DNA of 64,000 nucleotides from a virus (taxonomy: Duplodnaviria > Heunggongvirae > Uroviricota > Caudoviricetes), in IMG/VR virus record IMGVR_UViG_2896028454_000001, positions 3,450-67,449 of that record. One strand, 5' to 3'. The notes beneath the pieces were generated by a model. It did not search any database. It saw nothing but the letters and a program-made list of their open reading frames with translations, and was not told the origin of the DNA. The position numbers and the translations under genes are program-made. Below, piece after piece: positions 1,297 to 38,450 of the stretch (positions are counted from its first letter, which is position 1; the number at the start of each line of letters is the position of its first letter).

Positions 1297-3009
1297 ATGA
1301 CGCGCACCAACCCCCGCGACAACGACGACAACGAGCCCGTCAACTTCGAAGACGTCCAGATCGGCGACACCCTGACCTTCTGCAACCGCGACAACGGCTT
1401 CGGGGGCAGTGGTAACCGCATCAACCGCACCGGTGTCGTCACCGGCAAAACCGAAAAGACCGTCACCGTCAAGGTCACCGGCCATAACCCGCTCGCCGTG
1501 GGCGTGTTCACCCTCAACAGCCGGGGCCACGGCAAGGAGGTCACCTACGGCGCCACCGCCCGCCTGCGCGCCTCCACCTGGAACGACCGGCAGGTCCGCC
1601 GGGTCGAGGCCGAGCAGCCCGCCGACGAGCCGACCGCCGAGAGCTACGACGGCGAGTGGGGCGTCTTCAACGACGAGGGATGCACCTTCGTGGGCTCCCG
1701 CGCCGAGGCGGAGGCCCAGGCCGCCAAGGACCGCGCCGCAGATGACGGCCACTGGGCTGAGCTGATCAGCGTTCACCGGATCTGCCCCGACCACGAGGAG
1801 CAGCCCAAGGACGCGTGCGAGGAGTGCTTGACCTACGCCCAGGACGACGGAGCCGAGGAGGAGCCGGTGCACATGCGTGAGGGCAGCGGAACCCTGTGTG
1901 GCGAAACCGGCCCGGACACGGCAGGGACCGGTCACGTGAACTGCGAGGGGTGCCTGGACAAGCTCGCCGACGAGGCGGACCGTATCGCGCAGGGCATCAC
2001 CCTGTGCCCGGTGTACGACGTGCCGGACAGCGAGTGCGGGTGCTCCCTCCACGAGGACGCCGAGGAGTCCCCGGCGGAGGGCCGCGTCATCGCCCACCAG
2101 GGCACCGGTCGCGGCGTCGCCCCCGAGCACTCCGACAACCCCGCCGCCCGCGCCGCCATCGCTGTCCTGGCCGCCGCCGGGCTTTCCCTCGCCGATCTGC
2201 CCGAGACCTACGACCCTGACACCAGCACCGCGAACGGGTTCATGGTCGAGCCGCGCGACGGTGCCGAGGGTCCTGCGGGGGAGATGGTCTACGTCTACTA
2301 CCTGAACAACGGGCAGACCACCGACCCGTCTGGGGAGTTCCCCCGCGACGAGCTGCGCAACGCCCAGCGGGCACTTCGCGACGCCGGGTGGGGTGTGGAG
2401 CCGCGTATCTCCCGGTGCGTGCGGGCCTGCCAGGTTCACGAGGACCCGGCGCCGCAGCACGACCACAGCGTGGCGGAGGGAATCGTCCGCGCCGTTGAGC
2501 AGCGCAACGCCCCGGCGCCGCTGCCGAAGCGCACCCCTGGCGCCACCCGCATCCAAGACGCGGCCGACCGCCACCACGGAGTGGACCCCGACCGCGCCCG
2601 CAAGATCGCCGCCACGCTCGGCACCGCCGGATTCAACGCCCTCCAGTCCGCCGACGAGGACGGATACCTCACCGCCGGACACCCCGCGTCCCTGAAGGCG
2701 CTGGCCCGTGACGAACTGGTGGTGCAGGCCGAGCACCCGGCGGCCGGTGGTGGCCCACGCACGTACCGGATTACGGAACTGGGCCGTGTCGTGGCCCGCA
2801 TGAAGTCCGCCGCGCTGGCCGACCCCACCCCGGAGCCGAAGAAGCCCCGGGCGCACCGCATCCCCGTCAAGCACGCGGACACCCCGACCGGCCGCACCTA
2901 CACGGCCGCTTGCCGCGACTGCGACCACACCGTGGGCCCCTACGACATCCGCGCGATCGCGGAGGAGCGGGCCGCGTCGCACCGGTCCGCGACCGCACGC
3001 ACGACCTGA
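1297..3009 (+). CDS. Large hypothetical protein (570 aa) with several Cys clusters
   Basis: Long ORF with coding-like composition. CxxC-type clusters (CEECL, CEGCL, ECGC). No family recognised. Confidence 0.55.
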   Translation: MTRTNPRDNDDNEPVNFEDVQIGDTLTFCNRDNGFGGSGNRINRTGVVTGKTEKTVTVKVTGHNPLAVGVFTLNSRGHGKEVTYGATARLRASTWNDRQVRRVEAEQPADEPTAESYDGEWGVFNDEGCTFVGSRAEAEAQAAKDRAADDGHWAELISVHRICPDHEEQPKDACEECLTYAQDDGAEEEPVHMREGSGTLCGETGPDTAGTGHVNCEGCLDKLADEADRIAQGITLCPVYDVPDSECGCSLHEDAEESPAEGRVIAHQGTGRGVAPEHSDNPAARAAIAVLAAAGLSLADLPETYDPDTSTANGFMVEPRDGAEGPAGEMVYVYYLNNGQTTDPSGEFPRDELRNAQRALRDAGWGVEPRISRCVRACQVHEDPAPQHDHSVAEGIVRAVEQRNAPAPLPKRTPGATRIQDAADRHHGVDPDRARKIAATLGTAGFNALQSADEDGYLTAGHPASLKALARDELVVQAEHPAAGGGPRTYRITELGRVVARMKSAALADPTPEPKKPRAHRIPVKHADTPTGRTYTAACRDCDHTVGPYDIRAIAEERAASHRSATARTT

Positions 3010-3822: not shown

Positions 3823-4689
3823 ATGACCGACGCCCCGCTCGGAAAGAGCCGGAGCACCGAAACGAAGTACGCCCGTATCCCGCTGTGGCTCTTCGAGACT
3901 GGTGTGTCCCTCCAGGCCCTTGCCACCTACGCCTGGTTGCACGGCAAGTACGGGCACTTTGACCTGGTCATCCCCTCCTACAGGACACTCGCGAAGCAGC
4001 TCAAAGTCTCTCGCAGTTCGGTCATCGCCTACGTCAACGAGTTGCGCAATGTCGGCGCGATCGTCGCGATCGAGCGGTACAGCAACGGTGAGCGCACCAC
4101 GAACGAGTACGTCATCGCGTTCAACGAGCCGTTCACGGTGGTCAGCATTCCGACCACCTCTGACCAGGGTGGACCTGACGAAGGTGGTCAGGATATTGAT
4201 CAGGGGGGTCAGCCCGCTGACCCGGGTGGTCAGAATGCTGACCCGGGGTGGTCAGCCGGTTGTACTGCGGAAGAAGACGTAGTTGAAGAAGACGTAGTTA
4301 AGAAGACACCCAACAACCCGGCGTTGCCGGGTATGCCCCCCGACCCCGTCGAGCCTCCGAAGCCCGGCAGCGACGACGACCCCCAATGGGTGAAGTTCTG
4401 GGCCGCCTACCCCAACAAGGTCTCCAAGAAGCGAGCCCGCGCCTCGTTCGCCCAAGCGCTGAAGAAGGTCACCTTCGATGACCTCATGGTCGGCCTCCAC
4501 CGATACCTCACCGAGGACTACCGCCCTCTAGGCGGCTACGTGAAAGATCCTGCGGCGTGGCTGAACGGCGAGTGCTGGGCGGATGAGCCCCAACCTCCTC
4601 GCGGCGCCCCAAAGGCCGCTGGCGGCCCCTCCGCGGCTGTCCCCACTCACGACGACTGGAACACCGGAAAGGCCCAGGTCCAACTCTGA
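3823..4689 (+). CDS. Replication initiator-like protein with N-terminal winged-HTH; contains internal iterons
   Basis: N-terminal wHTH-like region (LAKQLKVSRSSVIAYVNELRNVGAIVAIER). Low-complexity linker encoded by the repeat DNA. Position directly upstream of the loader and helicase genes. Confidence 0.55.
   Translation: MTDAPLGKSRSTETKYARIPLWLFETGVSLQALATYAWLHGKYGHFDLVIPSYRTLAKQLKVSRSSVIAYVNELRNVGAIVAIERYSNGERTTNEYVIAFNEPFTVVSIPTTSDQGGPDEGGQDIDQGGQPADPGGQNADPGWSAGCTAEEDVVEEDVVKKTPNNPALPGMPPDPVEPPKPGSDDDPQWVKFWAAYPNKVSKKRARASFAQALKKVTFDDLMVGLHRYLTEDYRPLGGYVKDPAAWLNGECWADEPQPPRGAPKAAGGPSAAVPTHDDWNTGKAQVQL
4160..4256. repeat. Iteron cluster. At least 7 copies of GGTCAG/CTGACC (mostly as GGTGGTCAG) in about 100 bp inside the initiator gene
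   Basis: Read directly: GGTGGTCAG at about 4183, 4225, 4247; GGGGGTCAG at 4204; CTGACC at 4160, 4217, 4238. Confidence 0.5.
4273..4308. repeat. AT-richer tandem direct repeat GAAGAAGACGTAGTT x2 plus a partial copy (candidate DNA-unwinding element)
   Basis: Exact 15-bp tandem duplicate followed by AAGAAGAC, immediately 3' of the iterons. This is the lowest-GC stretch in the gene. Confidence 0.4.
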
Positions 4690-5276: not shown

Positions 5277-6607
5277 ACACCCCCACCGAGTTCCCGCACG
5301 ACATCCCCTCGGAGAAGGTCGTGCTGGGCCTGTGCCTGATCTCTAAACGCGCCCTGGAGGACGTGGCTGCCCACGGCCTGCTCCCGGAGGACTTCTACCG
5401 ACCTGCCCACCAGGCCATCTATGAGGCGGCCCGCCACCTGGTGGACATGGGCAAGCCGGTATCGGCGGAGTCGGTGAACGCCGAGCTGGCGCGCCGGGGC
5501 GAGTCGGTGGCGACCGGCGGCATCCTCACCCTGATCGAGTTGACAGAGAACACCCTGTCCCCGGCGACGGCCGTCTACTACGCCAACCTGGTCATCAACC
5601 AGGCCCGGCTACGGCGAGCCCTCCAAGGGGCCATCCGCGCCGCCCAGATCGCATCTGAGGGCCGCGGGGACGTCGATGAGCTGATCGGGATGATCGCCGC
5701 CGAGATGGAAGCGGCGACCGCCCCACGGGCCACCAACGACGACGAGTTCATGGCCCTCGGCGACATCATCCCCAACGTCGTGGACCTGCTGGAGAAACCC
5801 GACGAGGCCACCAACGCCGTCCCCCTGCCCTACGGAGACCTCGACGCCCTCACCGCAGGTCTCGAACCCGGGGAGGTCATGGTGGTGGCTGGCCGCCCCG
5901 GCACGGGTAAGACCACGTTCGCTCAGGACGCTGTCCGCCACGCCGCGATCCGCCACAACATCCCCTCCGTGTTCTTCAGCTTGGAGATGTCCAAGGAGGA
6001 GCTGACGCTGCGGGTCCTATGCGCCGAGTCGCGTGTGCCACTGCACACGATGAAGTCGCGCCTGCTGGACGAACCCGACTGGGAGCGCATCCGCGACGCC
6101 CGCAAACGCATCGCGGACGCCCCGCTGATGATCGACGCGAACCCGTACACCACCACCGCGCATATCCGCGCCCGCCTGCGTGGCATGGCCCGGCCCGCCC
6201 CCGGCAAGCCCGGCCCGGCCCGCCTCGTGGTCGTGGACTACCTCCAGCTGATGAAGCACCCCGGCCGGCCCGAAAACCGGCAGCAGGAAGTCTCCGACAT
6301 CTCGCGCGAGCTGAAGCTGATCGCGAAGGAGTTCGGGGTGGGCATCATCCTCCTGGCTCAGCTCAACCGCGGCCCCGAGCAGCGGCAGGACAAACGGCCG
6401 ATGGTGTCGGACCTGCGTGAGTCCGGCAGTGTGGAGCAGGACAGCGACATGGTCGTCCTGCTGTTCCGGGAGGACGTGTACGACAAGGAGTCGCCCCGGG
6501 CGGGGGAGCAGGACATCATCGTGGGCAAGCATCGGGGCGGCCCCACCGCTGAGGTGACCGTGGCGTTCCAGGGCCACTACTGCTGCGCTGTCGGGTTCGG
6601 TGACTGA
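5273..6607 (+). CDS. dnaB: DnaB-like replicative helicase
   Basis: N-terminal DnaB-type domain, Walker A GRPGTGKTTFAQD, VVVDYLQLM motif, RecA-like C-terminal domain (444 aa). Confidence 0.85.
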   Translation: MNTPTEFPHDIPSEKVVLGLCLISKRALEDVAAHGLLPEDFYRPAHQAIYEAARHLVDMGKPVSAESVNAELARRGESVATGGILTLIELTENTLSPATAVYYANLVINQARLRRALQGAIRAAQIASEGRGDVDELIGMIAAEMEAATAPRATNDDEFMALGDIIPNVVDLLEKPDEATNAVPLPYGDLDALTAGLEPGEVMVVAGRPGTGKTTFAQDAVRHAAIRHNIPSVFFSLEMSKEELTLRVLCAESRVPLHTMKSRLLDEPDWERIRDARKRIADAPLMIDANPYTTTAHIRARLRGMARPAPGKPGPARLVVVDYLQLMKHPGRPENRQQEVSDISRELKLIAKEFGVGIILLAQLNRGPEQRQDKRPMVSDLRESGSVEQDSDMVVLLFREDVYDKESPRAGEQDIIVGKHRGGPTAEVTVAFQGHYCCAVGFGD

Positions 6608-7416
6608 TGGCCGACCAGATCCCGCACGGCACCCCGTCCGGGTACTCGTACCACGGCTGCCGGTGCCGACCGTGCACAGACGCCCAGCTCAGGTACTGGA
6701 ACCGGCGTGAGTACATGATCCTCACCGGGCGGTGGAATCCGCACATCGCCACCGAGAAGGTGCGCGCCCACATCCTCACCCTGCGCGCCAAGGGCATCCC
6801 TGACCGGCGCATCGCAGAACTCGCCGATGTCGGGGCCACGTCGATCTACTACATCCTGCACCGCAACGGCGAGAAGACGTCCCGCCGGGTGGGTGAGGCG
6901 ATCCTGTCGGTCACCCACGACCCGGACCCGCCGCCGGAGAAGAAGGTTCCGGCGTGGGGCACCATCCGTCGCGCTCGGGCGCTCGCCGCGCTCGGGTGGT
7001 CCTCGGGTGAGATCGCTGAAGCCGCCGGGCTCACCCGGTCTGTGGTCCGCCACATCCTGCGTGGCCGCCCCCGGATGGTGCTGGCGGAAACGGCGACGGG
7101 CCTGGTCCGCGCGTACCGGAAGCTGGGCGGGGGCTTCGCCCCGGAGTCCCGAACCGCGAACCAGGTCCGAGATGAGGCGCGTGTGAAGGGGTGGCCGGCC
7201 CCGGCCGGGTGGGATGACCACTGGTTGGACCTGACCGAGGACGAGTTGGAGGCCGAGTTGGGGCGGGAGGTGGCGCGGATGGACATGGCGGAGCTGTCCC
7301 GGTGTTACAAGGCGTGGCGGGTGCGGGGGGAGTTGTCGCCGCTGGTGGTGGCCGCAGCGGCGGAGTACAACCGGCGTCGGGCGGATCAGGTACGGGCGCA
7401 GAGGGAGGCGGCGTGA
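6607..7416 (+). CDS. DNA-binding protein with an N-terminal Cys/His motif (GYSYHGCRCRPC) and HTH
   Basis: Motif GTPSGYSYHGCRCRPCTDAQLRYWNRREY. HTH-like IAELADVGATSIYYIL and IAEAAGLTRSVVRHIL. Confidence 0.5.
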   Translation: MADQIPHGTPSGYSYHGCRCRPCTDAQLRYWNRREYMILTGRWNPHIATEKVRAHILTLRAKGIPDRRIAELADVGATSIYYILHRNGEKTSRRVGEAILSVTHDPDPPPEKKVPAWGTIRRARALAALGWSSGEIAEAAGLTRSVVRHILRGRPRMVLAETATGLVRAYRKLGGGFAPESRTANQVRDEARVKGWPAPAGWDDHWLDLTEDELEAELGREVARMDMAELSRCYKAWRVRGELSPLVVAAAAEYNRRRADQVRAQREAA

Positions 7417-7793
7417 TGGCGCGGAGGGTGACAGGGCCGACGAAGGCCGTCCGGAACATGGTGTGGGAGCGGGACCGCGGGGCGTGCGCCTGGTGCGGCG
7501 GCCCGGTGGTGGAGGGGGACCACAGTCTCCAGCACCGGCGGGCGCGGGGGATGGGCGGCACCCGGAGGGCGGACGCGAACTCCCCGGCGAACCTGGTGTT
7601 GGTGCACGGGTCCGCGACGACGGGGTGTCATGGGCATATCGAAGCCCACCCGGGGGAGGCGGCTCGGCGGGGGTTTCGGCTCGGTCAGCTCGCGGACCCG
7701 GCGGACGTGCCGGTGTTGTACGCGGGGCGGGTGTGGGTCCGGTTGGATCATGCGGGGGGTTGGGTGGCTCAGAGTGGCGTACTGCCTGGGTAG
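7416..7793 (+). CDS. HNH endonuclease
   Basis: CAWCG...HSLQHRRARGMGG...NLVLVHG..CHGHIE matches the HNH core. Confidence 0.7.
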   Translation: MARRVTGPTKAVRNMVWERDRGACAWCGGPVVEGDHSLQHRRARGMGGTRRADANSPANLVLVHGSATTGCHGHIEAHPGEAARRGFRLGQLADPADVPVLYAGRVWVRLDHAGGWVAQSGVLPG

Positions 7794-7845
7794 ACAGGGG
7801 GGTACGTGAGAATCTGGCTGTGGTTTTCTATGTCCCAGTGCTGTA

Positions 7846-7869
7846 AATTCGTGTAAATTTACACGAATT
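7846..7869. promoter_or_regulatory. 24-bp perfect palindrome AATTCGTGTAAATTTACACGAATT (copy 1) upstream of ssb
   Basis: Read directly. A near-identical copy lies at about 21560. Followed by a conserved CTGATAGAGTGGGGGTACCCC segment and a GGAAGGGGAAACCTTCC hairpin. Confidence 0.5.
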
Positions 7870-7977
7870 CTGATAGAGTGGGGGTACCCCAACGGGAAGG
7901 GGAAACCTTCCCGGGGGACAGGGGGTGACCTGCGCAAACGGCGAATCAGGCACCCACGAGATAGAGAGGTTCCCCCT

Positions 7978-8502
7978 GTGGCAGGCGAAACCCAGATCAC
8001 CCTGGTCGGCAACCTGGTGGACGACCCGGAGCTTCGGTTCACCCCGGGCGGTCACGCCGTCGCGAACTTCCGTGTCGCGTCTACCCCCCGCACCTTCGAC
8101 CGGGACAAGGGCGAGTACGTGGACGGCGAGTCCATGTTCCTCACCTGCACCGTCTGGCGGCAGTACGCGGAGAACGTGGCCGAGTCCCTTCAGCGCGGTA
8201 TGCGCGTCGTCGTTCAGGGCCGCTTGAAGCAGCGGAACTACGAGAAGGACGGCCAGAAGCGGACCGTCTTCGAGATCGACGTGGACGAGGTCGGCCCGTC
8301 CCTGCGGTCCGCGACCGCGCAGGTGACGAAGAACCCGCGCGGCAACGGCAACGGGGGCGGCCAGCGCTCCCAGGGCGGCGGCTACGGCCAGCAGTCCGGC
8401 GGGTTCGGCGGTGGCCAGCAGCCCCCGACCCAGGACCCGTGGGCCGGTAACGGCGGCGGTCAGCCCAGCGGCGGTAGCTACTCGGACGAGCCCCCGTTCT
8501 AA
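7978..8502 (+). CDS. ssb: Single-stranded DNA-binding protein
   Basis: OB-fold N-terminus ([19 protein letters not shown]...), Gly/Gln-rich tail ending in the acidic DEPPF. Confidence 0.9.
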
Positions 8503-8508
8503 CGGCTT

Positions 8509-8542
8509 GGGGCGGGACCAATTGGCATAGCCCTCCCGCCCC
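8509..8542 (+). terminator. Terminator-like hairpin after ssb (GGGGCGGGA...TCCCGCCCC)
   Basis: 9-bp inverted repeat directly after the ssb stop. Confidence 0.3.
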
Positions 8543-8645
8543 GCCCGGGTGGGCGGTCACTCCCACACCGCCCACCCCCCGGCCGCCCCGGCCCCGCTCC
8601 CCGGGGCGGCCCCACCCCCACCCCTGCACCCTCCAGGAGAACCCC

Positions 8646-9050
8646 GTGAAGCACCCCAAGACCAAGGTCGTCGCCCGCCTCCGCCTCCTGGCCAAGCACG
8701 CCACCGAGCGCGCTGACCTGCGAGACAAGAAGCTCCACGAGGACCACTACGAAGCCCTGAACTGCCACCGTCAGGCCGCCCCGCAGGTGCGCGAACTCCT
8801 CACGGAGGCCGAGAACCTGTTGGCCGGGGAGCCCACCGCCGCCGACTTCGAGCAGGCCAAGGCCCTCATCCGCCGCGCCGAACGCGCGCTCAGCCTTCGC
8901 GAAATCCCGTCCCTCACTACCCACCGAGCCGACCGTGGCCGCGCCGAGGCGTTGGAGGCTGCCGCCTCTCTGCTGGAGGACTCCGAGGGCGACACCGTGA
9001 CCACGTCCGAGCTGGAGCGGTTCGGCATCCTCTCCTACCTGCGGGTGTAA
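8646..9050 (+). CDS. Hypothetical protein (134 aa)
   Basis: ORF with K/E-containing composition, GTG start. Confidence 0.5.
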   Translation: MKHPKTKVVARLRLLAKHATERADLRDKKLHEDHYEALNCHRQAAPQVRELLTEAENLLAGEPTAADFEQAKALIRRAERALSLREIPSLTTHRADRGRAEALEAAASLLEDSEGDTVTTSELERFGILSYLRV

Positions 9051-10744: not shown

Positions 10745-11262
10745 TGCCCGTGGACACCGCCGCTGAGGCCCGCATGGTGGTCGCCGGGCGGGTCGCGGAC
10801 CCCACCACCCAGGAGGTCACCCCCGCAGAGCTGGAAGCCCTCCGCCCCCTCCTTGACGCCCTGGATCTGCTCCCCCGCCCCGAGACCCCGGACGAAGCCG
10901 AAGCCGAATCCGGGCCCGACACCACTAACCCGGTCAAGGAACCGATCGCCAACCCGGCCAAGGAACCGGCCGCCGTCCGGGACGAGTGCGGAACCCGCAA
11001 CGGCTACCAGCAGCATGTCCAGCTCGGCGAAGAAGCGTGTGAGGACTGCAAGGCAGCCAACCGGATCTACGCCTACGCCTGGTACCAGCGCAACAGGGCC
11101 AACCGCCGGGAGTTGGCCCCGTGCGGGACCGAAGCCGCGTACCAGCGGCACCGGCGGCGACGCGAGGAATGCCGGGAGTGCAAGGACGCGAACGCCCGGG
11201 CGGGCAGGGAGAAGCGGGCACGGCAGAGTGCCCGCCGAGCGCGCGACCGCGCCACCGCATGA
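10744..11262 (+). CDS. Protein with two copies of the G.GY..H...C..C..A..Y motif
   Basis: CGTRNGYQQHVQLGEEACEDCKAANRIYAYAWYQRNRANRR and CGTEAAYQRHRRRREECRECKDANARAGREKRARQ. Confidence 0.5.
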   Translation: MPVDTAAEARMVVAGRVADPTTQEVTPAELEALRPLLDALDLLPRPETPDEAEAESGPDTTNPVKEPIANPAKEPAAVRDECGTRNGYQQHVQLGEEACEDCKAANRIYAYAWYQRNRANRRELAPCGTEAAYQRHRRRREECRECKDANARAGREKRARQSARRARDRATA

Positions 11263-11312
11263 ACCCAGACCGCCCCACCCGAACCCACCCGCCTTTTGGA
11301 GAGGAGGCCCCC

Positions 11313-12107
11313 GTGCGCTTCTACCTCGGAACCCACCAACCCGACTGGCTTCACCACCTCAACCACCGGTGGTTCGAAGCCGACCAGGTCCCCCTGTTCG
11401 TGTCCCACCGCCGCCTCGCCGACCGCCGCACCCTGTTCCCCGCGAACGTCCCGTGGGCCCTCGACAGCGGCGGGTTCACCGAGCTGTCCATGTACGGCCG
11501 GTGGGTAACCACCCCCACGGACTACGCCCACCACGTCCGCCGGTACATGGACGAGATCGGCCGACTGGAGTGGGCCGCCCCGCAGGACTGGATGTGCGAG
11601 CCGGTGATGCTCGCCAAGACCGGCCTCACGGTCGCCCACCACCAGGCGCGCACCCTCGACAACCTGTTGGAGCTGCGCCACCTCGCCCCCGACCTGCCGT
11701 GGGTGCCCGTCCTCCAGGGGTGGGAGCCGGACGACTACCGGCGCCACGCCGACGCCTACCAGTCCGCTGGTGTCGACCTCACCACGGAACCCGTCGTCGG
11801 GTTGGGGTCGGTGTGCCGCCGCCAGTCCACCACCGCCGTGCACAGCCTGGTCGCTGAGCTGGCCGCTGCTGGGCTCCGGTTGCACGGGTTCGGGTTCAAA
11901 ACCCTTGGCCTCCGCAAGGTCGGGCATCTGCTCGCGTCCGCTGACAGCCTCGCTTGGTCGTTGAACGCCCGCCGTCGCCCCGCCATGGCCGAGTGCTTCG
12001 ACGCTCACGAGCACTGCGGGAACTGCCCCCGGTTCGCCACCCGGTGGCGCCGCCAGCTTCTCGACTCCCTCACCCCGCCCCCGGCCCCCTCCGCTTACGC
12101 GGCCTGA
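11313..12107 (+). CDS. tRNA-guanine transglycosylase superfamily protein, DpdA-like
   Basis: DSGGF catalytic-Asp motif (as in the TGT DSGGFQ). VPVLQGW, GLGSVCRR. C-terminal C-x5-H-x-HC-x2-C zinc-site-like motif (CFDAHEHCGNCP). Confidence 0.6.
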   Translation: MRFYLGTHQPDWLHHLNHRWFEADQVPLFVSHRRLADRRTLFPANVPWALDSGGFTELSMYGRWVTTPTDYAHHVRRYMDEIGRLEWAAPQDWMCEPVMLAKTGLTVAHHQARTLDNLLELRHLAPDLPWVPVLQGWEPDDYRRHADAYQSAGVDLTTEPVVGLGSVCRRQSTTAVHSLVAELAAAGLRLHGFGFKTLGLRKVGHLLASADSLAWSLNARRRPAMAECFDAHEHCGNCPRFATRWRRQLLDSLTPPPAPSAYAA

Positions 12108-12123
12108 CCCGAACAGGACCCCC

Positions 12124-12903
12124 ATGGACTCCCTCAGCCTCGCTGACCGCATGAAGACCTACGAGGCCGCCACCCGCCATATCCTCCCCGCCCAGACGTA
12201 CACCGTCGTCCGCGTTGACGGGCGGGCGTTCCACACGTTCCTCCGCCACGCTGACCGGCCGTTCGACGACGCGGTCATGGCCGCCATGGACGCCACCGCC
12301 GTCGCCCTCTGCAAGGACATCAGCGGGGCCCGGTTCGCCTACACCCAGTCGGACGAGGTCAGCGTCATCATGACCGACTTCGGGAACGCTGGCACACAGC
12401 CGTGGTTCGGCGGGGTCGTCCAGAAGATCGCGTCGGTTGCCTCCTCGGTGGCCACCGTGGCGTTCAACGCCGAGTACGGGCACCACTACGACGACGCGAC
12501 CGCCACGTTCGACGCGCGCGTGTTCACGCTCCCCACCGCGGCGGAGGTCGTGAACTACTTCGTGTGGCGGCAGCGCGACGCGGTCCGCAACGCCGTGTCC
12601 ATGGCTGCCCAGGCCGAGTTCTCCCACCGGCAACTCCACGGGGTGAACACCGCCCAGGCCCGCGAACTCCTCCGATCGCGCGGCATCGACTTCGACGCCT
12701 ACCCGGCCGGGGCCCGGTACGGCCGGTTGTGTGCTCGCGCCACCAGCGAACGCACCGTCACCTACACGGACAAGCGCGGGGTTGAGCACACCACCCGGGC
12801 CGTCCGCTCCCACTGGGAGACCATGCCCGCCCCGTCCTTCACCGCCGACCCGGGCGGGGATCTGGCCTCGTCCATCCCCGAGCCCGGCGACCACACCTCC
12901 TGA
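12124..12903 (+). CDS. Thg1-like protein (tRNA-His guanylyltransferase-like 3'-5' nucleotidyltransferase family)
   Basis: VVRVDGRAFH vs Thg1 VVRLDGRNFH. AYTQSDEVSVIM vs AYGQSDEYSFVF. DARVFTLPT...YFVWRQ vs DGRVVVYPS...YLSWRQ. Motifs are collinear with eukaryotic Thg1. Confidence 0.75.
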   Translation: MDSLSLADRMKTYEAATRHILPAQTYTVVRVDGRAFHTFLRHADRPFDDAVMAAMDATAVALCKDISGARFAYTQSDEVSVIMTDFGNAGTQPWFGGVVQKIASVASSVATVAFNAEYGHHYDDATATFDARVFTLPTAAEVVNYFVWRQRDAVRNAVSMAAQAEFSHRQLHGVNTAQARELLRSRGIDFDAYPAGARYGRLCARATSERTVTYTDKRGVEHTTRAVRSHWETMPAPSFTADPGGDLASSIPEPGDHTS

Positions 12904-14372: not shown

Positions 14373-14439
14373 TGTAGCTACACATCATGCCATGCCGGAA
14401 GTTGTGTAGCTACACTTCGTCTGATAAACTGTAGCTACA
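14373..14439. promoter_or_regulatory. Operator cluster 1: three copies of the palindrome TGTAGCTACA (two extended to GTGTAGCTACAC)
   Basis: Read directly at about 14373, 14405 and 14430, separated by CTTCGTCTGATAAAC, in the divergent intergenic region. Confidence 0.55.
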
Positions 14440-14486
14440 GAACATCGGGAGGGGAAGCCCGATGATCCCCACCAGGAAGGCCCACC

Positions 14487-16124: not shown

Positions 16125-16159
16125 TGTAGCTACAAAACATCTGATAAAGTGTAGCTACA
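16125..16159. promoter_or_regulatory. Operator cluster 2: two TGTAGCTACA palindromes flanking CATCTGATAAAG
   Basis: Same palindrome and the same TCTGATAAA core spacer as cluster 1, upstream of gene 16255. Confidence 0.5.
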
Positions 16160-20487: not shown

Positions 20488-20739
20488 GTGAACCTCGCTG
20501 GCCGTACCCGCGCTGACATCGACGCGCTCCTCACCGAACGAGACACCGACATCGCCACCCTCACCCAAGCCGCCGACATCGCCGACACCCGCCGCCTGTT
20601 CGACCTCGCCGACCACTGCCGAAAGTGGGCAGCGAACCCACCCAACCCCGCCGGGGGCACCCCGATCGGGTACCTCCTCGCCCTCACCTACGCGGACCTT
20701 CTCGTCCACGGCCACACCCCCCAGGAGCACACCCCATGA
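20488..20739 (+). CDS. Hypothetical protein (83 aa)
   Basis: GTG start inside track ORF 20431..20739. Confidence 0.4.
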   Translation: MNLAGRTRADIDALLTERDTDIATLTQAADIADTRRLFDLADHCRKWAANPPNPAGGTPIGYLLALTYADLLVHGHTPQEHTP

Positions 20740-21515
20740 CCCTGATGACCGGGTTCGACCTGGAAACCACCGGGAAGGACCCCGAAACCGCGCGCATCGT
20801 CGAGTACGGGTTCGCGCACGTCGGCGGCGGCCAACCTTCCGAGTTCGTGGAGGAACGTGTCAACCCGGGGGTTCCGATCCCAGCCGAGGCCGCCCAGGTC
20901 CACGGCATCACCGACGAGATGGTGGCCGCCGCCATGTCGGCCGAGGCCGCGGTGACCCGCATTGTGCGGACCATCGCTGGGGTGCTCGCTGAGGGCCGGT
21001 TGCTGGTCGGCCACAACATCGTGTACGACCTGACCGTGTTGGACCGGGAGTGCCGCCGCCACCTCGGGGAGGGGTTGGAGTCCCTGTTGGGGGTGCCGGT
21101 CCGCCCGGTGGTGGACACGTTGGTGTTGTCCAAGCACCTGGACCCGTACCGCAAGAGGGTGTCGGACAAGCAGGGTGCTCACCAGTTGCGTACCTGTGTG
21201 GAGAAGATGGTGACCCCCCGGTGGCCGTCTGTGGTGTGGGACGAGGGGGAGGCGCACGGGGCCCTGTACGACTGTCGCATGGCGTTGTATGTGGCCGCGG
21301 CCGTGTTGGCTCTCCCGAAGCTGTCCAACCTGGGCCTGGGGGAGTTGCACGATGCCCAGGTGGGGTGGAAGGCCGCTCAAGCCGCCGGGTTCCAGACCTA
21401 CCTTCGCAACCCGGCGAAAGCGGGGGACAGCTACGACCCGGGCGCGGTAGTGGACGGCAGGTGGCCGGTTGTTCCGGCTGAGCCCCGGCAGGAGGCGTTG
21501 TTGGGGAGGGGGTGA
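20736..21515 (+). CDS. DnaQ-like 3'-5' exonuclease (DEDDh)
   Basis: Exo I FDLETTG. Exo II LVGHNIVYDL. Exo III HGALYD. Confidence 0.75.
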   Translation: MTLMTGFDLETTGKDPETARIVEYGFAHVGGGQPSEFVEERVNPGVPIPAEAAQVHGITDEMVAAAMSAEAAVTRIVRTIAGVLAEGRLLVGHNIVYDLTVLDRECRRHLGEGLESLLGVPVRPVVDTLVLSKHLDPYRKRVSDKQGAHQLRTCVEKMVTPRWPSVVWDEGEAHGALYDCRMALYVAAAVLALPKLSNLGLGELHDAQVGWKAAQAAGFQTYLRNPAKAGDSYDPGAVVDGRWPVVPAEPRQEALLGRG

Positions 21516-21559
21516 GGGGGTGGTGGGGTGTGGGCGGTGTCCCGCACCCCATCACTGTA

Positions 21560-21583
21560 AATTCGTGTAAATTTACAAGAATT
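21560..21583. promoter_or_regulatory. 24-bp palindrome AATTCGTGTAAATTTACAAGAATT (copy 2, one mismatch) upstream of the HAD/RNA-ligase operon
   Basis: About 55 nt are shared with the copy at 7846, including the downstream GGGGGTACCCC palindrome. Confidence 0.5.
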
Positions 21584-21640
21584 CTGGTAGGATGGGGGTA
21601 CCCCCGGAAGGGGCGAAACCCCTGAATCCGAGGAGTCCCC

Positions 21641-22261
21641 GTGCCCCCTTTCCCTCGTGCTGTCTGTCCTGGTTGTGGCGAGGACATCGCGGTCAACCGG
21701 GGCGGGCGTCTCCGCGTTCACGGCCGTCTGCCCTACGACGGGTGCCCCGGGTCCAGCAGGTACGCCCGGCCTCTGCTGTTCCTGGACGTGGACGGGCCCT
21801 TGAACCCGCACTACATGGGCAAGAACAAGTCCCGCCGGTTGGGTTACCAGCGGGACTGGATCAACGGGTTCGACGTCCGTCTGAACCCCTCCCACGGCCC
21901 CGCCCTCCTCGGCCTCCCTGTGGATCTGGTGTGGGGCACCACGTGGGAGCACGACGCGAACAAGCTGATCGGCCCCGTCATCGGGCTGCCCGAACTGCCG
22001 GTGTGCGAGTGGTCGAAGACCGAACCGAAAGGCATCGACCGGCGGGTGTATTACAAAACCCCCGACCTGGTCGATTACGCCGAAGACCGGCACCGGCCGT
22101 GGATCTGGGTGGACGACGAGATCGGCGACGCCGACCGCGAATACGCCGCCGGGGCCGCGACCGTCCCCACCCTCCTCCACCGGGTGGACCCCCGCGAAGG
22201 GCTCACCACCGACGACTTCACCGCGATCACCGCGTGGGTCCACAACCTCAACAACCCCTGA
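21641..22261 (+). CDS. HAD-superfamily phosphatase (polynucleotide 3'-phosphatase-like)
   Basis: Motif I FLDVDGPL. Motif IV WIWVDDEIGD. N-terminal CPGC...C zinc ribbon. Confidence 0.55.
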   Translation: MPPFPRAVCPGCGEDIAVNRGGRLRVHGRLPYDGCPGSSRYARPLLFLDVDGPLNPHYMGKNKSRRLGYQRDWINGFDVRLNPSHGPALLGLPVDLVWGTTWEHDANKLIGPVIGLPELPVCEWSKTEPKGIDRRVYYKTPDLVDYAEDRHRPWIWVDDEIGDADREYAAGAATVPTLLHRVDPREGLTTDDFTAITAWVHNLNNP

Positions 22262-22272
22262 AACGGAACCCC

Positions 22273-23061
22273 ATGACACTCCTCGAAACCCTCAACCGCA
22301 GGCTGCTGAACAGCGCCACCCAGTACCCGAAGATGCCCACCTACCACAAGCTCGAACGCGGCCTGCTCACCGATGACCGCAACACCGTGTTCCCCGCCCA
22401 CCAGCCCGTCATCATCACGGAGAAGGTCAACGGTGCGTCCGCCCGCGTGGTGGTGGACTCCTCCGGGGACCTGTTCATCGGCTCCCGCCATGAACTCCTG
22501 TACGCCCTCGGCGACCGCATCCCGAACCCGGCCGAGAACATCGTCCACACCCTCCGCGACATCGCCCGGGACCTGCCCCGCCCCGGCGACGGGCTGGCCG
22601 TGTACTTCCTGGAGGTGTACGGCAGCGGCATCGGGTCCGCGTGGAAGCAGTACACCGGCCGCAAGGGCGAGTACGGGGCCCGCCTGTTCGACGCCGCGAT
22701 GATCCCCGCCGACGCCCTGGAGGGCACGGCCGAGCAAATCGCCGCATGGCGCGAGCAGGGCGGCCAGAAGTTCGCGACGGAGAAGGAACTGGCCGGAATC
22801 ACCCTGGTGTCGGACATCCCCCTCACCCCGCGCATCGCGACGATCCCTGGGGCCGGAGTGCCCGCGACCATCGCGGAGATGCACCCGTACCTGTGCGTGG
22901 TCGCCGGGGAGACCCGGGTCGCCCTGGACGAGGACGGTTTCGGCAACGCGGAAGGGATCGTGCTCCGCACCCCGGACCGGTCCCACATCGTCAAGGTCCG
23001 GCACAAGGACTACGAGCACACCGCGAAGGCCCGCGCCCGCGCCCGTGCGAAGGCCGCCTGA
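22273..23061 (+). CDS. ATP-dependent RNA ligase-like nucleotidyltransferase (Rnl2-like)
   Basis: Motif I ITEKVNGAS (KxNG lysine nucleotidyltransferase motif). Motif IV-like EGIVLR. Motif V-like IVKVRHKD. Confidence 0.55.
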   Translation: MTLLETLNRRLLNSATQYPKMPTYHKLERGLLTDDRNTVFPAHQPVIITEKVNGASARVVVDSSGDLFIGSRHELLYALGDRIPNPAENIVHTLRDIARDLPRPGDGLAVYFLEVYGSGIGSAWKQYTGRKGEYGARLFDAAMIPADALEGTAEQIAAWREQGGQKFATEKELAGITLVSDIPLTPRIATIPGAGVPATIAEMHPYLCVVAGETRVALDEDGFGNAEGIVLRTPDRSHIVKVRHKDYEHTAKARARARAKAA

Positions 23062-23128
23062 CCCCCACCCCCCGGGGCGGCCGTAGGGAAGACGGCCGCC
23101 CCCCGGACCAGAAGCGAGAACACCCCCT

Positions 23129-24442
23129 GTGATCACCATCAAGGACCTCTTCGCCGGTGGCGGCGGCACCACCACAGGCGCCCGCAAGGTGCCTGGCGTC
23201 AAGGTCAGCATGGCCGTCAACCACTGGCCGCTGGCCGTCGACACCCACAACCTGAACCACCCCGACACCGGCCACGACTGCGTCGACATCTCCCAAGTCG
23301 ACCCCCGCCGGTACCCGACCACGGACATCCTGTGTGCGTCTCCGGAGTGCACGCAGCAGACCAGGGCGCAGGGCGTGGCCCGCACCGCCCGGCAGGCGTT
23401 CGACCTGTTCAGCACCGACGAGATGGACGCCGCTGAACGCTCCCGCGCCACCATGTGGGACGTACTGCGGTTCACGGAGGTGCACGCCTACCGGTACATC
23501 ATCGTGGAGAACGTCATCGACGTCCGAGGCTGGGCGATGTGGCCCGCGTGGGCGCTGGGCCTGGGCTGTCTCGGCTACGAGTTCCGGTACATCAGCCTCA
23601 ACAGCATGTTCGCTGGGGCTTTCGGCGCCCCGGCAGCCCAGTCCCGCAACCGGGGTTACGTCGTCGCGTGGAAGAAGGGCGAGCGCGCCCCGGATTTCAA
23701 CGCGTGGCTGCGCCCCTACGCGGACTGCCCCGTTCACAAGCGTGTGCAGGCCATCCAGGCGTTCAAGAACGGTCGCGAGTACGGCGAGTACGGGCCCCAG
23801 TACATCTGGCGGTGCCCCCGCGTGGAGTGCCGTAACACCCAGGTCCACCCGAAGGTGCGCCCGGCCGCCGACATCATCGACTGGTCCATCCCCACCCCAC
23901 GCATCGGCGACCGCACCACCCCGCTCGTGGAGAACACCATGCGCCGGGTCCGGGACGGGGTCGCCACCTACGGCCGCCCGGCCGAGGACGGCACCCACCT
24001 GCCGCCGTTCATGACCGAACTCCGGGGCGGCGGGTCCAAGCACCGGCCCATGGCGTCCCCGCTGTCCACCGTCACCGCTGGCGGCAACCACCACGCCATC
24101 ACCGTCCCCGACATGATCTACCCGTACTACGGCAACTCGGCTCTCCAGCCCGCCGCCCGGCCGCTGCCCACGGTCACGACGGTGGACACCTGCGCGCTCC
24201 TGCAAGGCGGGGTCATCCGCGACATCAACGACCTGCGGTACCGGATGCTCAAACCGCACGAGTACGCCGCCGCCCAGGAGTTCCCGGCGGACTACCGGTG
24301 GCCGGTTACGTCGAGCAAGAAGCTCGTCCGGATGATCGGGAACGCGGTGTCCACGAACGCGGCCCGTGACCTGGTGGGCATGGTCGCCGCCCAGATGGAC
24401 CCGAGCATCGTTCCGACGTGGGGGATGGGGTTGGCCGCATGA
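23129..24442 (+). CDS. DNA (cytosine-5)-methyltransferase
   Basis: FAGGGG motif I, SPEC (PC motif), IVENV motif VI, target-recognition domain region, C-terminal motifs. Confidence 0.85.
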   Translation: MITIKDLFAGGGGTTTGARKVPGVKVSMAVNHWPLAVDTHNLNHPDTGHDCVDISQVDPRRYPTTDILCASPECTQQTRAQGVARTARQAFDLFSTDEMDAAERSRATMWDVLRFTEVHAYRYIIVENVIDVRGWAMWPAWALGLGCLGYEFRYISLNSMFAGAFGAPAAQSRNRGYVVAWKKGERAPDFNAWLRPYADCPVHKRVQAIQAFKNGREYGEYGPQYIWRCPRVECRNTQVHPKVRPAADIIDWSIPTPRIGDRTTPLVENTMRRVRDGVATYGRPAEDGTHLPPFMTELRGGGSKHRPMASPLSTVTAGGNHHAITVPDMIYPYYGNSALQPAARPLPTVTTVDTCALLQGGVIRDINDLRYRMLKPHEYAAAQEFPADYRWPVTSSKKLVRMIGNAVSTNAARDLVGMVAAQMDPSIVPTWGMGLAA

Positions 24443-36246: not shown

Positions 36247-36276
36247 TTGCACCACGGTTAGAGTTCGTGCTTTAAT
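36247..36276 (+). promoter_or_regulatory. Cassette promoter copy 1 (TTGCAC-N18-TTTAAT with GGTTAGAGTTCGTGC core)
   Basis: Member of the 9-copy family TTGCAM-N3-GGTTAGAGTTCGTGY-AATAAT. Confidence 0.5.
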
Positions 36277-36281
36277 TGTGT

Positions 36282-36305
36282 GTGTCGGGAAGGGAAGCCC
36301 GACAC
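36282..36305 (+). promoter_or_regulatory. 5' stem-loop, AAGGGAAG loop (GTGTCGGG/CCCGACAC stem)
   Basis: Covarying stem, invariant loop. Confidence 0.5.
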
Positions 36306-36326
36306 CAACCACCAGAAAGGCACACC

Positions 36327-36707
36327 ACCGTGAGCGAGACCATCCGCAACGAGATGCACGACAAGCTCGAAACCACCCTGACCATCATCGCCGCCGCGTT
36401 CGCCCGCGTGAACATCCGCATCGGCGACCCCACCCGCATCGACCTGGACCACGACATCCACCACTGGCAGCAGGCCGTGTGGGAGTCCACGAAGGACCTG
36501 GCCAACCTGAACACCGGCCACGCCTGGACGTCCACGATCGGCCTGGAGGACGCCGCCAGCCGGTGGGTGCACGCGGCCACCGCCTACACCGCCTACCGGC
36601 ACCTGTCGGCCGAGTTCAACGAGGGCCTGTTCTGGGAGCACATGGCGCCGTGCGAGTCCGCGCTGAGCCTCCTGGTCGACGGGGCGCGTTGGACGGTTCG
36701 GGGTTGA
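36327..36707 (+). CDS. Hypothetical protein (cassette gene 1)
   Basis: GTG after CCACCAGAAAGGCACACCACC. Confidence 0.5.
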   Translation, partial: TVSETIRNEMHDKLETTLTIIAAAFARVNIRIGDPTRIDLDHDIHHWQQAVWESTKDLANLNTGHAWTSTIGLEDAASRWVHAATAYTAYRHLSAEFNEGLFWEHMAPCESALSLLVDGARWTVRG

Positions 36708-36743
36708 TCCTGCGGGGTCCGGGTGGTTGCTCGGGCCCCAGCT

Positions 36744-36772
36744 TGCCCCCGGGTTAGAGTTCGTGTAATATT
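36744..36772 (+). promoter_or_regulatory. Cassette promoter copy 2
   Basis: TTGCCC-ccg-GGTTAGAGTTCGTGT-AATATT. Confidence 0.45.
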
Positions 36773-36776
36773 GGGG

Positions 36777-36799
36777 GTGTTGGGAGGGAAGCCCAACAC
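36777..36799 (+). promoter_or_regulatory. 5' stem-loop (GTGTTGGG-AGGGAAG-CCCAACAC)
   Basis: Same family. Confidence 0.5.
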
Positions 36800-36823
36800 C
36801 CCCGCCACGAACGGAGCACCACC

Positions 36824-37225
36824 ATGAACCCCAACCCCTGGGCCGCCAGCGACCGCCACGCCGAAACCGAGGCCGACCGCCTCACCTGGCTCTGGGGAGT
36901 CCTGTACTACGACATCCAAGACATGCTGGTGTGCCTCCCCAGCCCGGTGCGTATTCCTGCGCTCCCTCCTGGCGTAGGGCACGTCGCCGCCGACACCCTC
37001 ACCGCCGTCCGCGACGACCTGTACGACCAGAACATCCCCAACGACATCCGACAGCTCGCCGACACGGCCCTCACCGACGCCGTGCTCGCCCTCAAAGCCA
37101 CCGGGGCCGAACGCCGCCACCTCACCGAGGAAGCACAGGCCCGCACCCGCGCGGTGGTCGCCTACCTCGGCGTTGGGCCCGAAGACTTCGGAGTCCCTGA
37201 CACCCTGGAGGAAATGACGACCTGA
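36824..37225 (+). CDS. Hypothetical protein (cassette gene 2)
   Basis: ATG after the hairpin and RBS. Confidence 0.5.
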   Translation: MNPNPWAASDRHAETEADRLTWLWGVLYYDIQDMLVCLPSPVRIPALPPGVGHVAADTLTAVRDDLYDQNIPNDIRQLADTALTDAVLALKATGAERRHLTEEAQARTRAVVAYLGVGPEDFGVPDTLEEMTT

Positions 37226-37242
37226 CCAGGCCAAACACGAAA

Positions 37243-37276
37243 AACGCCCGCCCCCGGAACCCCGGTGGCGGGCGTT
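37243..37276 (+). terminator. Terminator hairpin AACGCCCGCC-N14-GGCGGGCGTT, flanked by an A-tract
   Basis: 10-bp stem, preceded by AAAAA. Confidence 0.45.
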
Positions 37277-37400
37277 GAAGCAGAAACGGGGCGGCCTCTA
37301 CGGCGTCTAGCGCCGAAGACCAGGCCGAAGCCCGGAAATGGGAAGTCCGGCCGCCCCTCCCACCAGTTAGCAAAGGCCACTAGCGCCCCTACACCCTGGA

Positions 37401-37967
37401 ATGGAAGCCATGATACAGCAGCCGTTGACTCTCATCGACTACGCTCGCACCCGCCAGCTCGACCCCGCGAAACTCCTGGCCGAGTTCACCGACAACCCCG
37501 ACGCCCTCCCCGAACCCCAGGGTGAGCAGGCCGGGCAACCCACCTACGACCCCGACCAGCTCGACCGGGCGCGCGGCGTCACCACCCTCGCCGGGTTCGC
37601 GACCCTCCGAGGATGGGACCTGGACGACGTCCGCCGGTGGGACAAGCGGCAACCCGACCTGTGGCCGGAGTCGGTGGGGAGCGTGTACACCGGGCAGGCC
37701 GGGAAGCCGTGGAAGCTGTACCCGCTCGGTGCCCTGGACGTGGTGGCCGCGGCCGAGTCGGTGCGGCGCGGCCGGGAGCCCAAGCCTGAGGGGTTGGTGA
37801 CCATGGACGAGTTCGCGGACAAGATGGGAGTGTCCCGGGCGATGGTGAAGAACAAGTGGCGGGTCCAGCACCGGGACATCTGGCCGGAGCCCGCGGGGAA
37901 GCGGGGGCGCCAGCACCTGTATGAGGAGGAGGGGTTGATGCGGGTGTTCCGGGCCGCGCGGGGGTGA
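37401..37967 (+). CDS. Hypothetical protein, possible HTH (188 aa)
   Basis: DEFADKMGVSRAMVKNKW helix-turn-helix-like. Confidence 0.45.
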   Translation: MEAMIQQPLTLIDYARTRQLDPAKLLAEFTDNPDALPEPQGEQAGQPTYDPDQLDRARGVTTLAGFATLRGWDLDDVRRWDKRQPDLWPESVGSVYTGQAGKPWKLYPLGALDVVAAAESVRRGREPKPEGLVTMDEFADKMGVSRAMVKNKWRVQHRDIWPEPAGKRGRQHLYEEEGLMRVFRAARG

Positions 37968-38043
37968 CCTGGGGGTTGGTTGTTGGAGTGTGTGGGTTGG
38001 GGCCGGCGCGGTGGGCGTCGGCCCTTTTTGTTGGGTGGTCGAC

Positions 38044-38073
38044 TTGCACTCTGGTTAGACTTCGTGCAATAAT
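38044..38073 (+). promoter_or_regulatory. Cassette promoter copy 3 (TTGCAC ... AATAAT)
   Basis: GACTTGCACtctGGTTAGACTTCGTGCAATAAT. Confidence 0.5.
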
Positions 38074-38084
38074 GGTCATGTCAG

Positions 38085-38106
38085 GGCGGGGAAGGGAAGC
38101 CCCGCC
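38085..38106 (+). promoter_or_regulatory. 5' stem-loop (GGCGGGG-AAGGGAAG-CCCCGCC)
   Basis: Same family. Confidence 0.5.
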
Positions 38107-38130
38107 GACGCCCACCAGAAAGGCCACACC

Positions 38131-38436
38131 ATGACCATCACCCCGCACACCCCCGACACCAACCGCCTCACCGTCGAGACCAACCTGACCACCACCGTCG
38201 CCACCGCCCTCGACATCCCCACCACCAGCGTCCAGGCCGCCTACTTCGCCGCCGCGGGCCGCGCCATCATCACCATCCCCGTCACCACCAGTTCGCAGGT
38301 GGAGCGCGTCAGCAGCAAGGCCAGTCAGGCGCTGACCGAGACCGGGTTCGGCGCCCACTTCTTCAACAACGACGACCAGGGCGGCGCGCTGGGCCGCACC
38401 GACTACCGGGCGCAGATCGTCGTCAACGTCCGCTGA
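38131..38436 (+). CDS. Hypothetical protein (cassette gene)
   Basis: ATG after CCACCAGAAAGGCCACACC. Confidence 0.5.
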   Translation: MTITPHTPDTNRLTVETNLTTTVATALDIPTTSVQAAYFAAAGRAIITIPVTTSSQVERVSSKASQALTETGFGAHFFNNDDQGGALGRTDYRAQIVVNVR

Positions 38437-38450
38437 TCCACCACCCACCA

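Follow-up and report, generated by a model that had tools for sequence, protein, structure and literature searches.

Why does nearly the same AT-rich palindrome stand in front of both ssb and a distant pair of RNA-repair genes? The stretch of viral DNA that raises this question (64,000 nt, hereafter the window) is part of an integrated temperate prophage of Nocardiopsis sp. FR26 (contig VWVX01000002.1). A preliminary description had taken the palindrome for a regulator-binding site that overlaps a promoter and through which ssb shares its control with the RNA-repair genes. The sequence evidence as a whole supports such a putative site: the extended -10 elements that adjoin it, its presence at orthologous ssb and HAD positions in related prophages, and a further copy in the repressor/cro-like region. 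We propose that the element is probably where the prophage's immunity repressor binds, an operator present at several of the early promoters.

Prophage setting and gene order

We examined 82.3 kb, comprising the left flank (L087), the window and 8.4 kb of right flank, up to window position 72,380. In the left flank, host ICL and acyl-CoA dehydrogenase genes are followed by a 162-aa gene on the minus strand, a 107-aa HTH_31 gene on the plus strand, and the early genes. This succession of host genes and immunity genes identifies an integrated prophage whose immunity region lies about 3.4-3.5 kb to the left of the window, with the repressor/cro-like pair just inside the left prophage edge; no integrase was seen at this end. 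Within the window every credible gene is encoded on the plus strand (Table 1), and a beta clamp gene, then terminase, portal and protease genes, follow the C5 DNA methylase. Pfam matches bore out the preliminary naming of the downstream genes as ssb and a HAD/RNA ligase pair. Judged from their spacing, the HAD_SAK_2, RNA ligase and C5 methylase genes (21641-24442) would form one operon. The window has a G+C content of 69%, and both palindrome sites are among its ~14 AT-rich islands, in agreement with their earlier description as AT-rich in a GC-rich genome.

A megablast search of positions 7000-9000 against GenBank phages gave no match, DnaB had less than 45% identity to any phage by tblastn, with no GenBank phage close, and no close relative of the RNA ligase was found in IMG/VR. 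The form of the protease that begins at the start predicted here is absent from the protein records. Literature searches found no regulatory circuit described in Nocardiopsis phages.

Table 1. Features of the FR26 prophage (window coordinates, or left-flank coordinates where marked L087)
Feature	Position	Strand	Remark
Repressor-like gene, 162 aa	L087 5750-6238	-	HTH_3 E = 0.0012, below Pfam cutoff
Operator core, third copy	L087 6410-6431	.	over start of cro-like gene, divergent repressor/cro-like region
Cro-like gene, 107 aa	L087	+	HTH_31 E = 2e-9, stronger HTH match
HTH_36 initiator-like gene	3823-4689	+	followed by DnaC-like loader and DnaB
2xHTH protein gene	6607-7416	+	upstream of copy 1
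125-aa gene	7416-7793	+	HNH-like by motifs; no Pfam match
Operator core, copy 1	7842-7863	.	~ -44 to -23 of predicted ssb promoter
Extended -10 TGATAGAGT (TGn + TAGAGT)	7871-7879	+	7 bp after copy 1 core
GGGGGTACCCC, G-rich discriminator and predicted start region	7880-7890	+	+1 predicted at ~7885-7887 from -10 spacing only
Leader hairpin CGGGAAGG-GGAAA-CCTTCCCG	7893-7913	+	divergent member of genome-wide purine-rich-loop family
ssb 5'-UTR stem-loop, 9-bp bulged stem GGGTG-A-CCTG / CAGG-C-ACCC	7923-7955	+	nearly invariant in six prophages
ssb ribosome-binding site GAGAGG	7964-7969	+	followed by GTG start at 7978
ssb	7978-8502	+	Pfam SSB E = 1.6e-28; first gene of unit behind copy 1
DpdA, Thg1-like gene	11121-12903	+	between ssb and DnaQ-like exonuclease
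DnaQ-like exonuclease	20625-21515	+	just before copy 2
GC hairpin, 16-bp stem	21519-21556	+	ends at HAD operator; -32.5 kcal/mol, z = -4.56, 0/200 shuffles as good
Operator core, copy 2	21556-21577	.	22-mer identical to copy 1
Extended -10 TGGTAGGAT	21585-21593	+	7 bp after copy 2 core
GGGGGTACCCCC, discriminator and predicted start region	21594-21605	+	+1 predicted at ~21599-21601
HAD leader hairpin, core GGGG-CGAAA-CCCC at 21610-21622	21605-21630	+	structure kept, stem sequence differs from ssb copy
HAD ribosome-binding site GAGGAG	21630-21635	+	followed by GTG start at 21641
HAD_SAK_2 phosphatase-like gene	21641-22261	+	Pfam
RNA ligase	22258-23061	+	Pfam; downstream of HAD_SAK_2
C5 DNA methylase	23129-24442	+	downstream of RNA ligase

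A 22-bp dyad recurs at three sites of the prophage

The sequence AATTCGTGTAAATTTACACGAATT at 7846-7869 is a perfect 24-bp palindrome, AATT-CGTGTA-AATT-TACACG-AATT. Its counterpart at 21560-21583 carries one mismatch (A for C at 21578), so that the duplication described earlier is perfect in the first copy only. No further match to the 24-mer with up to three mismatches occurs in the window, nor did any arise in 100 shuffles. The two copies share a conserved block of 51 bp (7841-7891 and 21555-21605; 47 identical, 92%), made up of CTGTAAATT, the palindrome, CTGrTAGrrT and GGGGGTACCCC. The near-identity that had been reported for about 30 nt after the palindrome extends to 7891, and the hairpin beyond it, which has a GAAA-type loop in both copies, is retained in copy 2 as a structure rather than as a sequence. 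Exact copies of TGGGGGTACCCC occur only at the ssb and HAD sites.

Comparison of the copies defines a shorter unit, the 22-mer TGTAAATT-CGTGTA-AATTTACA, with 8-bp inverted arms and a 6-bp spacer, which begins 4 bp to the left of the 24-mer. It is identical at three FR26 sites, and every mismatch between copies falls outside it. Across six sites of this type (type I; three in FR26 and three in relatives) the unit reads TGTAAATT-SGTGTA-AATTTACA. The 24-mer overlaps this core and can be regarded as a second, overlapping dyad, because AATT recurs in it three times, every 10 bp; the third AATT is found at four of the six type-I sites and is absent from the cro-like site and from the HAD site of the relative L106.

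The third FR26 copy lies in the left flank, so that the scan for further copies proposed in the preliminary description yielded only the known two inside the window and one more outside it. Within the 82.3 kb, TGTAAATT occurs 10 times (shuffle mean 0.1), always at one of four places: the cro-like site, the ssb and HAD sites, and a half-site close to where the repressor gene begins. All six occurrences of AATT-N6-AATT in 82 kb of FR26 are likewise at operator sites. The element is therefore a dyad-symmetric site repeated far beyond chance, as is expected of a temperate-phage immunity operator. Exact-motif scans of IMG/VR, GTDB genomes (species representatives, the source genome not being among them) and JGI metagenomes gave nothing beyond chance matches, all of them in AT-rich contigs (23-42% G+C).

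The third copy points to the immunity repressor

The third copy lies within CTGTAAATTCGTGTAAATTTACACGCATGG, the last three letters of which (ATG) start the cro-like gene, and the TGTAAATT half-site (L087 6288-6301) is located 125 bp from it. An operator copy is thus present between the divergent repressor-like gene and the first early (cro-like) gene, the position at which an immunity operator is expected. The regulator is therefore likely to be the prophage's immunity repressor. The HTH_3 score of the 162-aa protein, encoded on the complement of about 117428-117916 of VWVX01000002.1, is 19.3, as compared with a Pfam cutoff of 23 bits, and no S24 peptidase domain was recognisable in it in the Pfam scan. 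Besides the source protein, only one repressor homologue was recovered by searching, on a 2-kb contig without upstream DNA. The cro-like HTH protein probably shares the operator sites with the repressor.

Operators are swapped together with the immunity region

Starting from homologues of the 2xHTH and HAD proteins, we found five contigs that share the gene order and the ssb architecture, giving six ssb regions for comparison (FR26, L084, L085, L086, L102 and L103); the immunity region is included in two of the relatives, L084 and L085. In all six, the ssb region is conserved from the -10 element onward (-10, GGGGGTACCCC, hairpin, long invariant stem and ribosome-binding site), and the DNA upstream is replaced by different dyads. 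The -10 reads TGrTAGrrT or TGGTAAATT in five of the six, as well as in the HAD copy of FR26, and TATGAT without TG in L102; GGGGGTACCCC is kept in 6/6 orthologues with at most two changes. Neither the palindrome nor the conserved ssb leader was found at 80 IMG/VR loci with SSB relatives, and the architecture is absent from nine distant 2xHTH loci from IMG/VR and from L104.

The type-I operator precedes ssb in FR26, L086 and L103, the latter two carrying G for C at position 9. L084 instead has ccctAATTatggtaAATTaggg, which lies over its -10; L102 has gcccAATTtagctaAATTgggc, a perfect palindrome that abuts its -10; and L085 has ATTTGCGTAAAT and TTTGGGTAAAT, 30 bp apart. Three of these four operator types fit the pattern NNNNAATT-N6-AATTNNNN, and AATT-N6-AATT is confined to the regulatory sites in every locus. 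A shared-8-mer comparison of the immunity and ssb regions was not discriminating because the flanks are conserved, and it was replaced by scans with degenerate patterns. These scans found TTTGSGYAAA four times in the 20.8 kb of L085, twice in the repressor/cro-like region and twice at ssb, with the 30-bp spacing in both; in L084, AATT(N)GGGG is present only in the immunity region (914-937 and 1036) and at ssb. The ssb operator hence matches the motifs of its own immunity region in both relatives in which this can be checked, so that, in a small sample of three prophages, the operator changes together with the immunity module. The copies, their positions, their pattern of conservation and their co-variation with the immunity region are direct features of the sequences.

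The repressors of FR26 and L084 are 50% identical over the N-terminal HTH and share the C-terminal domain; identity between FR26 and L085 is 34%. The HTH residues differ among the three homologues, as would be expected if their specificities differ.

The HAD site has a history of its own. The G variant AATTGGTGTAAATTTACAG is present at the ssb site of L086 and at the HAD site of L106, which come from the same sequencing run and are for this reason assumed to be one phage. In L106 the -10 is formed by the right arm of the HAD operator (TACAGT), with no TGnTAGRRT / GGGGGTACCCC part. Because L106 shares it, the operator at this position is older than any local duplication, and the 3' part of the FR26 HAD copy (extended -10, GGGGGTACCCC and hairpin) was probably copied from the ssb promoter, because L106 lacks it.

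Predicted promoters at the operator copies

Every copy of the element is next to, or overlaps, an extended -10 or TANNNT element, from which the transcription start is predicted. At both ssb and HAD the promoter has the form TGnTAGRRT followed by GGGGG, that is, a sigma-70-type -10 (TANNNT) with an upstream TG. A scan for canonical -35/-10 pairs found none at either site, and the best candidate for a -35 hexamer 16-18 bp upstream, TGTAAA, matches at 3/6 positions. The promoter call consequently depends on the extended -10; promoters of this class do not require a -35 element. With the hexamer placed at -12 to -7, the 22-mer spans -44 to -23 and the 24-mer -40 to -17.

The motif TGNTANNNT occurs five times in the 64-kb window (both strands), as compared with 14.4 expected, and two of the five are the copy 1 and copy 2 sites. 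All five lie on the coding strand in AT-rich intergenic islands, and neither the minus strand nor the genes contain any. This depletion argues for purging of the motif elsewhere and for a function of the five that remain, and suggests selection against stray extended -10 promoters. The longer pattern TGNTANNNTGGGG matches only the copy 1 and copy 2 promoters, and exact copies of GGGGGTACCCC occur only at the ssb and HAD promoters.

At the cro-like gene, the operator's own TAAATT lies 7 nt before the ATG, and the same spacing is seen in L084 (TAAATT) and L085 (TAGTGT). This shared distance from -10 to ATG suggests leaderless transcripts, with TAAATT in the cro-like operator probably acting as the -10. 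In actinomycetes the -10 consensus is TANNNT, and leaderless mRNAs make up about 21% of the total in Streptomyces coelicolor (PMC4895711).

The GC hairpin that ends at the HAD operator (Table 1) is a possible terminator, without a U tract, or insulator for the upstream exonuclease operon. A similar hairpin precedes the HAD operator in L106, and the ssb copy has no equivalent.

A model for early gene control and its alternatives

We infer from these comparisons which protein binds, where transcription starts and that the effect is repression. In the lysogen, the 162-aa HTH protein, as a dimer or higher oligomer, would bind all three sites. At ssb and HAD the bound protein would block the host RNA polymerase holoenzyme, since it would occupy about -44 to -23 of a promoter that has no -35. 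On loss of the repressor, the cro-like, ssb and HAD promoters would fire together, and ssb, for replication, and the RNA-repair functions would be turned on early and would not depend on transcripts running through from the first promoter.

The site might instead be read by some other phage regulator, such as the cro-like HTH_31 protein alone or an early or middle regulator, and might serve as a switch or activator site, a reading that we regard as unlikely. The third copy does overlap the cro-like start, the cro-like product has the stronger HTH match of the two, CI and Cro share their operators as a rule in lambdoid phages, and other HTH proteins are encoded in the window (at 3823-4689 and 6607-7416). 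However, L084 has only a 32-codon ORF at the cro-like position and yet keeps the same operator architecture and a homologous repressor, and the known classes of activator would hardly be expected to act from a site centred near -33 or -28 of a promoter that lacks a -35. The 2xHTH protein (6607-7416) is an unlikely reader because it is invariant while the operator varies: the operators of FR26 and L084 differ, whereas between these two prophages its second HTH is identical and its first nearly so. Less probable again is a cis-acting promoter element that needs no dedicated protein, through AATT curvature, an UP-like function or a host AT-binding protein such as Lsr2. This would account for three AATT tracts phased every 10 bp directly upstream of the -10 at the ssb-type sites (FR26, L086, L103 and L084) and for AT-rich islands in a genome of 69% G+C. 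It leaves unexplained that the bases between the tracts are identical in the three FR26 copies, form dyads and change with the immunity region of each prophage, and the position relative to the -10, which ranges from -44..-23 to directly over it (L084 and L106), is unsuited to an UP element.

The symmetry of the element raises the further question of whether it acts as RNA, as a processing site or a terminator without a U tract in read-through transcripts. The 24-mer does fold as a 10-bp hairpin (-10 kcal/mol, z = -3.1), and a palindrome that is kept while its sequence changes would also fit an RNA stem. We nevertheless consider this very improbable, because the 12-bp palindromes of L085 are loop-less and cannot fold, one FR26 copy covers a start codon in a region of divergent promoters, there is neither a U tract nor a terminator call at 7300-8300, and the AU-rich stem is weak beside the GC hairpins of this genome. 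Conservation largely refutes a recent local duplication without function, the outcome against which the preliminary description had weighed its own proposal and to which we assign the smallest probability of all. The 92% identity of the ssb and HAD blocks and the lack of the extended -10 / GGGGGTACCCC part in L106 speak for such an event, and the 3' part of the HAD copy does look copied from the ssb promoter. Against this, FR26 has three copies rather than two, the operator occupies orthologous ssb and HAD positions elsewhere and at HAD is older than any such duplication, and it is absent from the rest of the 82 kb.

Several known kinds of site were also considered and set aside. Actinobacterial LexA (SOS) boxes are TCGAAC-N4-GTTCGA-like palindromes, and GAAC-N4-GTTC does not occur in 7841-7891 or 21555-21605. 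A MerR-type spacer operator was rejected as there is no usable -35 at 19-20 bp, and a T7-like phage promoter as no phage RNA polymerase was found among the ~30 larger window proteins scanned with Pfam. A replication origin and an HNH homing target were dropped, the context being different at the three copies.

Relation to known repressor/operator systems

The closest parallel to the proposed repressor operator comes from the temperate actinobacteriophage BPs, whose gp33 recognises a 12-bp palindrome, CGACATATGTCG (Villanueva, Oldfield and Hatfull 2015, PMC4557955). The palindrome lies at the early lytic promoter and again in four small intergenic regions elsewhere. Such regions have promoter activity; three of the extra BPs promoters are repressed in the lysogen, and half-sites occur (PMC4557955). 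Both phages thus combine a palindromic operator in the repressor/early-promoter region with dispersed intergenic copies. They differ in the form of the site, which in BPs is CGACATATGTCG with a degenerate partner 5-8 bp away and in FR26 is TGTAAATT-N6-AATTTACA, and in the integration-dependent immunity of BPs, of which there is no sign here; the BPs operator data are experimental, whereas the FR26 operator is predicted from sequence comparison.

As in OL/OR of the lambda type, the dyads overlap early promoters beside a divergent repressor/cro pair. In heteroimmune lambdoid phages operator and repressor specificity are swapped as a module, and a swap of this style is seen between FR26, L084, L085 and L102. 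Unlike lambda, FR26 has no tandem triple operators, and its additional sites are internal, at the ssb and RNA-repair promoters 11 and 25 kb downstream; its repressor has no recognisable S24 peptidase, and the promoters are extended -10 or leaderless, as is typical of actinomycetes.

The stoperators of L5 and other Cluster A phages are asymmetric 13-mers at more than 20 sites, located in short intergenic gaps, oriented with transcription and bound by a monomer, and they stop elongation (PMC9283540). FR26 resembles L5 in that its sites spread through the genome beyond the immunity region. It departs from the stoperator pattern in having three symmetric sites, all at promoter-like positions. In phiC31, with its conserved inverted repeats, and in P1, with C1, a single repressor acts on many dispersed early promoters through repeated operators; we know of no sequence similarity between the FR26 operator and these sites.

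The proposed circuit extends a known logic of phage repression to a new lineage and leaves the understanding of phage repression unchanged. If the repressor reading is correct, it would provide a repressor/operator pair with -35-independent promoters for a high-G+C actinomycete, as well as a small natural series of operators with swapped specificity for studying the evolution of immunity specificity. It would also be a case in which the lysogeny switch controls ssb and the RNA-repair genes directly, and not by way of read-through transcription.

A wider claim, which we hold to be doubtful, is that the element represents a new family of Nocardiopsis-prophage repressors and operators with a swappable code, and the hairpins a new cis-acting RNA signal. 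The code would be NNNNAATT-N6-AATTNNNN, in which a constant inner AATT is phased by 10 bp and four variable outer bases set immunity specificity, and its reader an HTH protein whose C-terminal domain is of a new kind rather than an S24 peptidase. The hairpins that follow these and ~15 other promoters or gene starts could serve as antitermination signals of the nut/put kind or as SAS-like translation initiation signals. Operator, -35-less promoter and hairpin would together make a portable expression cassette that has spread to the HAD operon.

Leader hairpins and the ssb 5'-UTR

The leader hairpins of ssb and HAD belong to a genome-wide family of at least 14 plus-strand hairpins with variable, covarying GC stems and the loop AAGGGAAG, with members at 36279-45759 (14 copies), 14439-14468 and 7887-7916. 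Stem covariation is 0.46, as compared with 0.13 in shuffles (0/500 as high) and at most 0.16 in slid controls, and most members are followed by CCACCAGAAAGG and a start codon. The stems of the ssb hairpin likewise differ between orthologues while the hairpin is kept. In Cluster K mycobacteriophages, the SAS/ESAS elements place the repeated G-rich sequence GGGATAGGAGCCC before many start codons. The likeness to SAS is confined to the leader hairpin, with the repeated G-rich GGGAAGGGAAGCCC before start codons; unlike SAS, the FR26 element is a hairpin with covarying stems, ~20-40 nt ahead of the start codon.

Downstream of this hairpin, the stem of the ssb 5'-UTR shows no covariation because it shows no variation. 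Rfam 15 covariance models gave no match at E <= 1 in 7600-8200. The long 5'-UTR (7923-7977) may serve in autoregulation. We doubt a long-range helix, GGGGG/CCCCC, that would close the leader, because transcription is predicted to begin only downstream of the G run.

Other regulatory elements and possible counter-defence genes

Nine near-identical, strong sigma-70-like promoters (TTGCAA-N17-TAATAAT, spacer GGTTAGAGTTCGTG) lie within 36257-45730, starting at 36257, 36753, 38054, 38943, 41451, 41764, 43096, 45274 and 45704. A small gene follows each of them, and the whole group lies ahead of the beta clamp and late genes. The TTCGTGTAAT(AAT) within these promoters is like one half of the operator (AATTCGTGTAAA), with 1-2 mismatches.

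A different palindrome, (G)TGTAGCTACA(C), occurs in five copies at 14373-14439 and 16125-16159. These flank two further extended -10 promoters (TGATAAACT at 14422 and TGATAAAGT at 16142), with one copy over the -35 region and one over the start, and are probably the operator of a second regulator. The AT-rich island at 1183-1245, before a 570-aa gene (1297-3009), contains an inverted repeat (GTAGCTTACG / CGAAAGCTAC), TGGTAGCTT and a TAGTGT -10-like hexamer.

Possible counter-defence cargo includes DpdA (7-deazaguanine DNA modification), the Thg1-like tRNA-His guanylyltransferase, and HAD_SAK_2 with the RNA ligase. The gene at 51090-51377, which matches the Acb2/Tad1 hairpin domain, may belong to the same class.

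Two NCBI gene starts look too short. The HAD protein is 153 aa in NCBI versus 206 aa as predicted here, and the short form cuts the DVDG motif; the NCBI repressor product is 125 aa versus 162 aa here, and would lose part of the HTH. Orthologues and ribosome-binding sites favour the longer form of both.

Inside the HTH_36 initiator-like gene, the AT-rich direct repeat GAAGAAGACGTAGTT occurs twice at 4280-4306. AT-rich sequence is found at the same place in L084 (7635-7674), L085 (8369-8400) and L086 (1657-1708, a different direct repeat), and these repeats within the initiator gene are candidate origin iterons.
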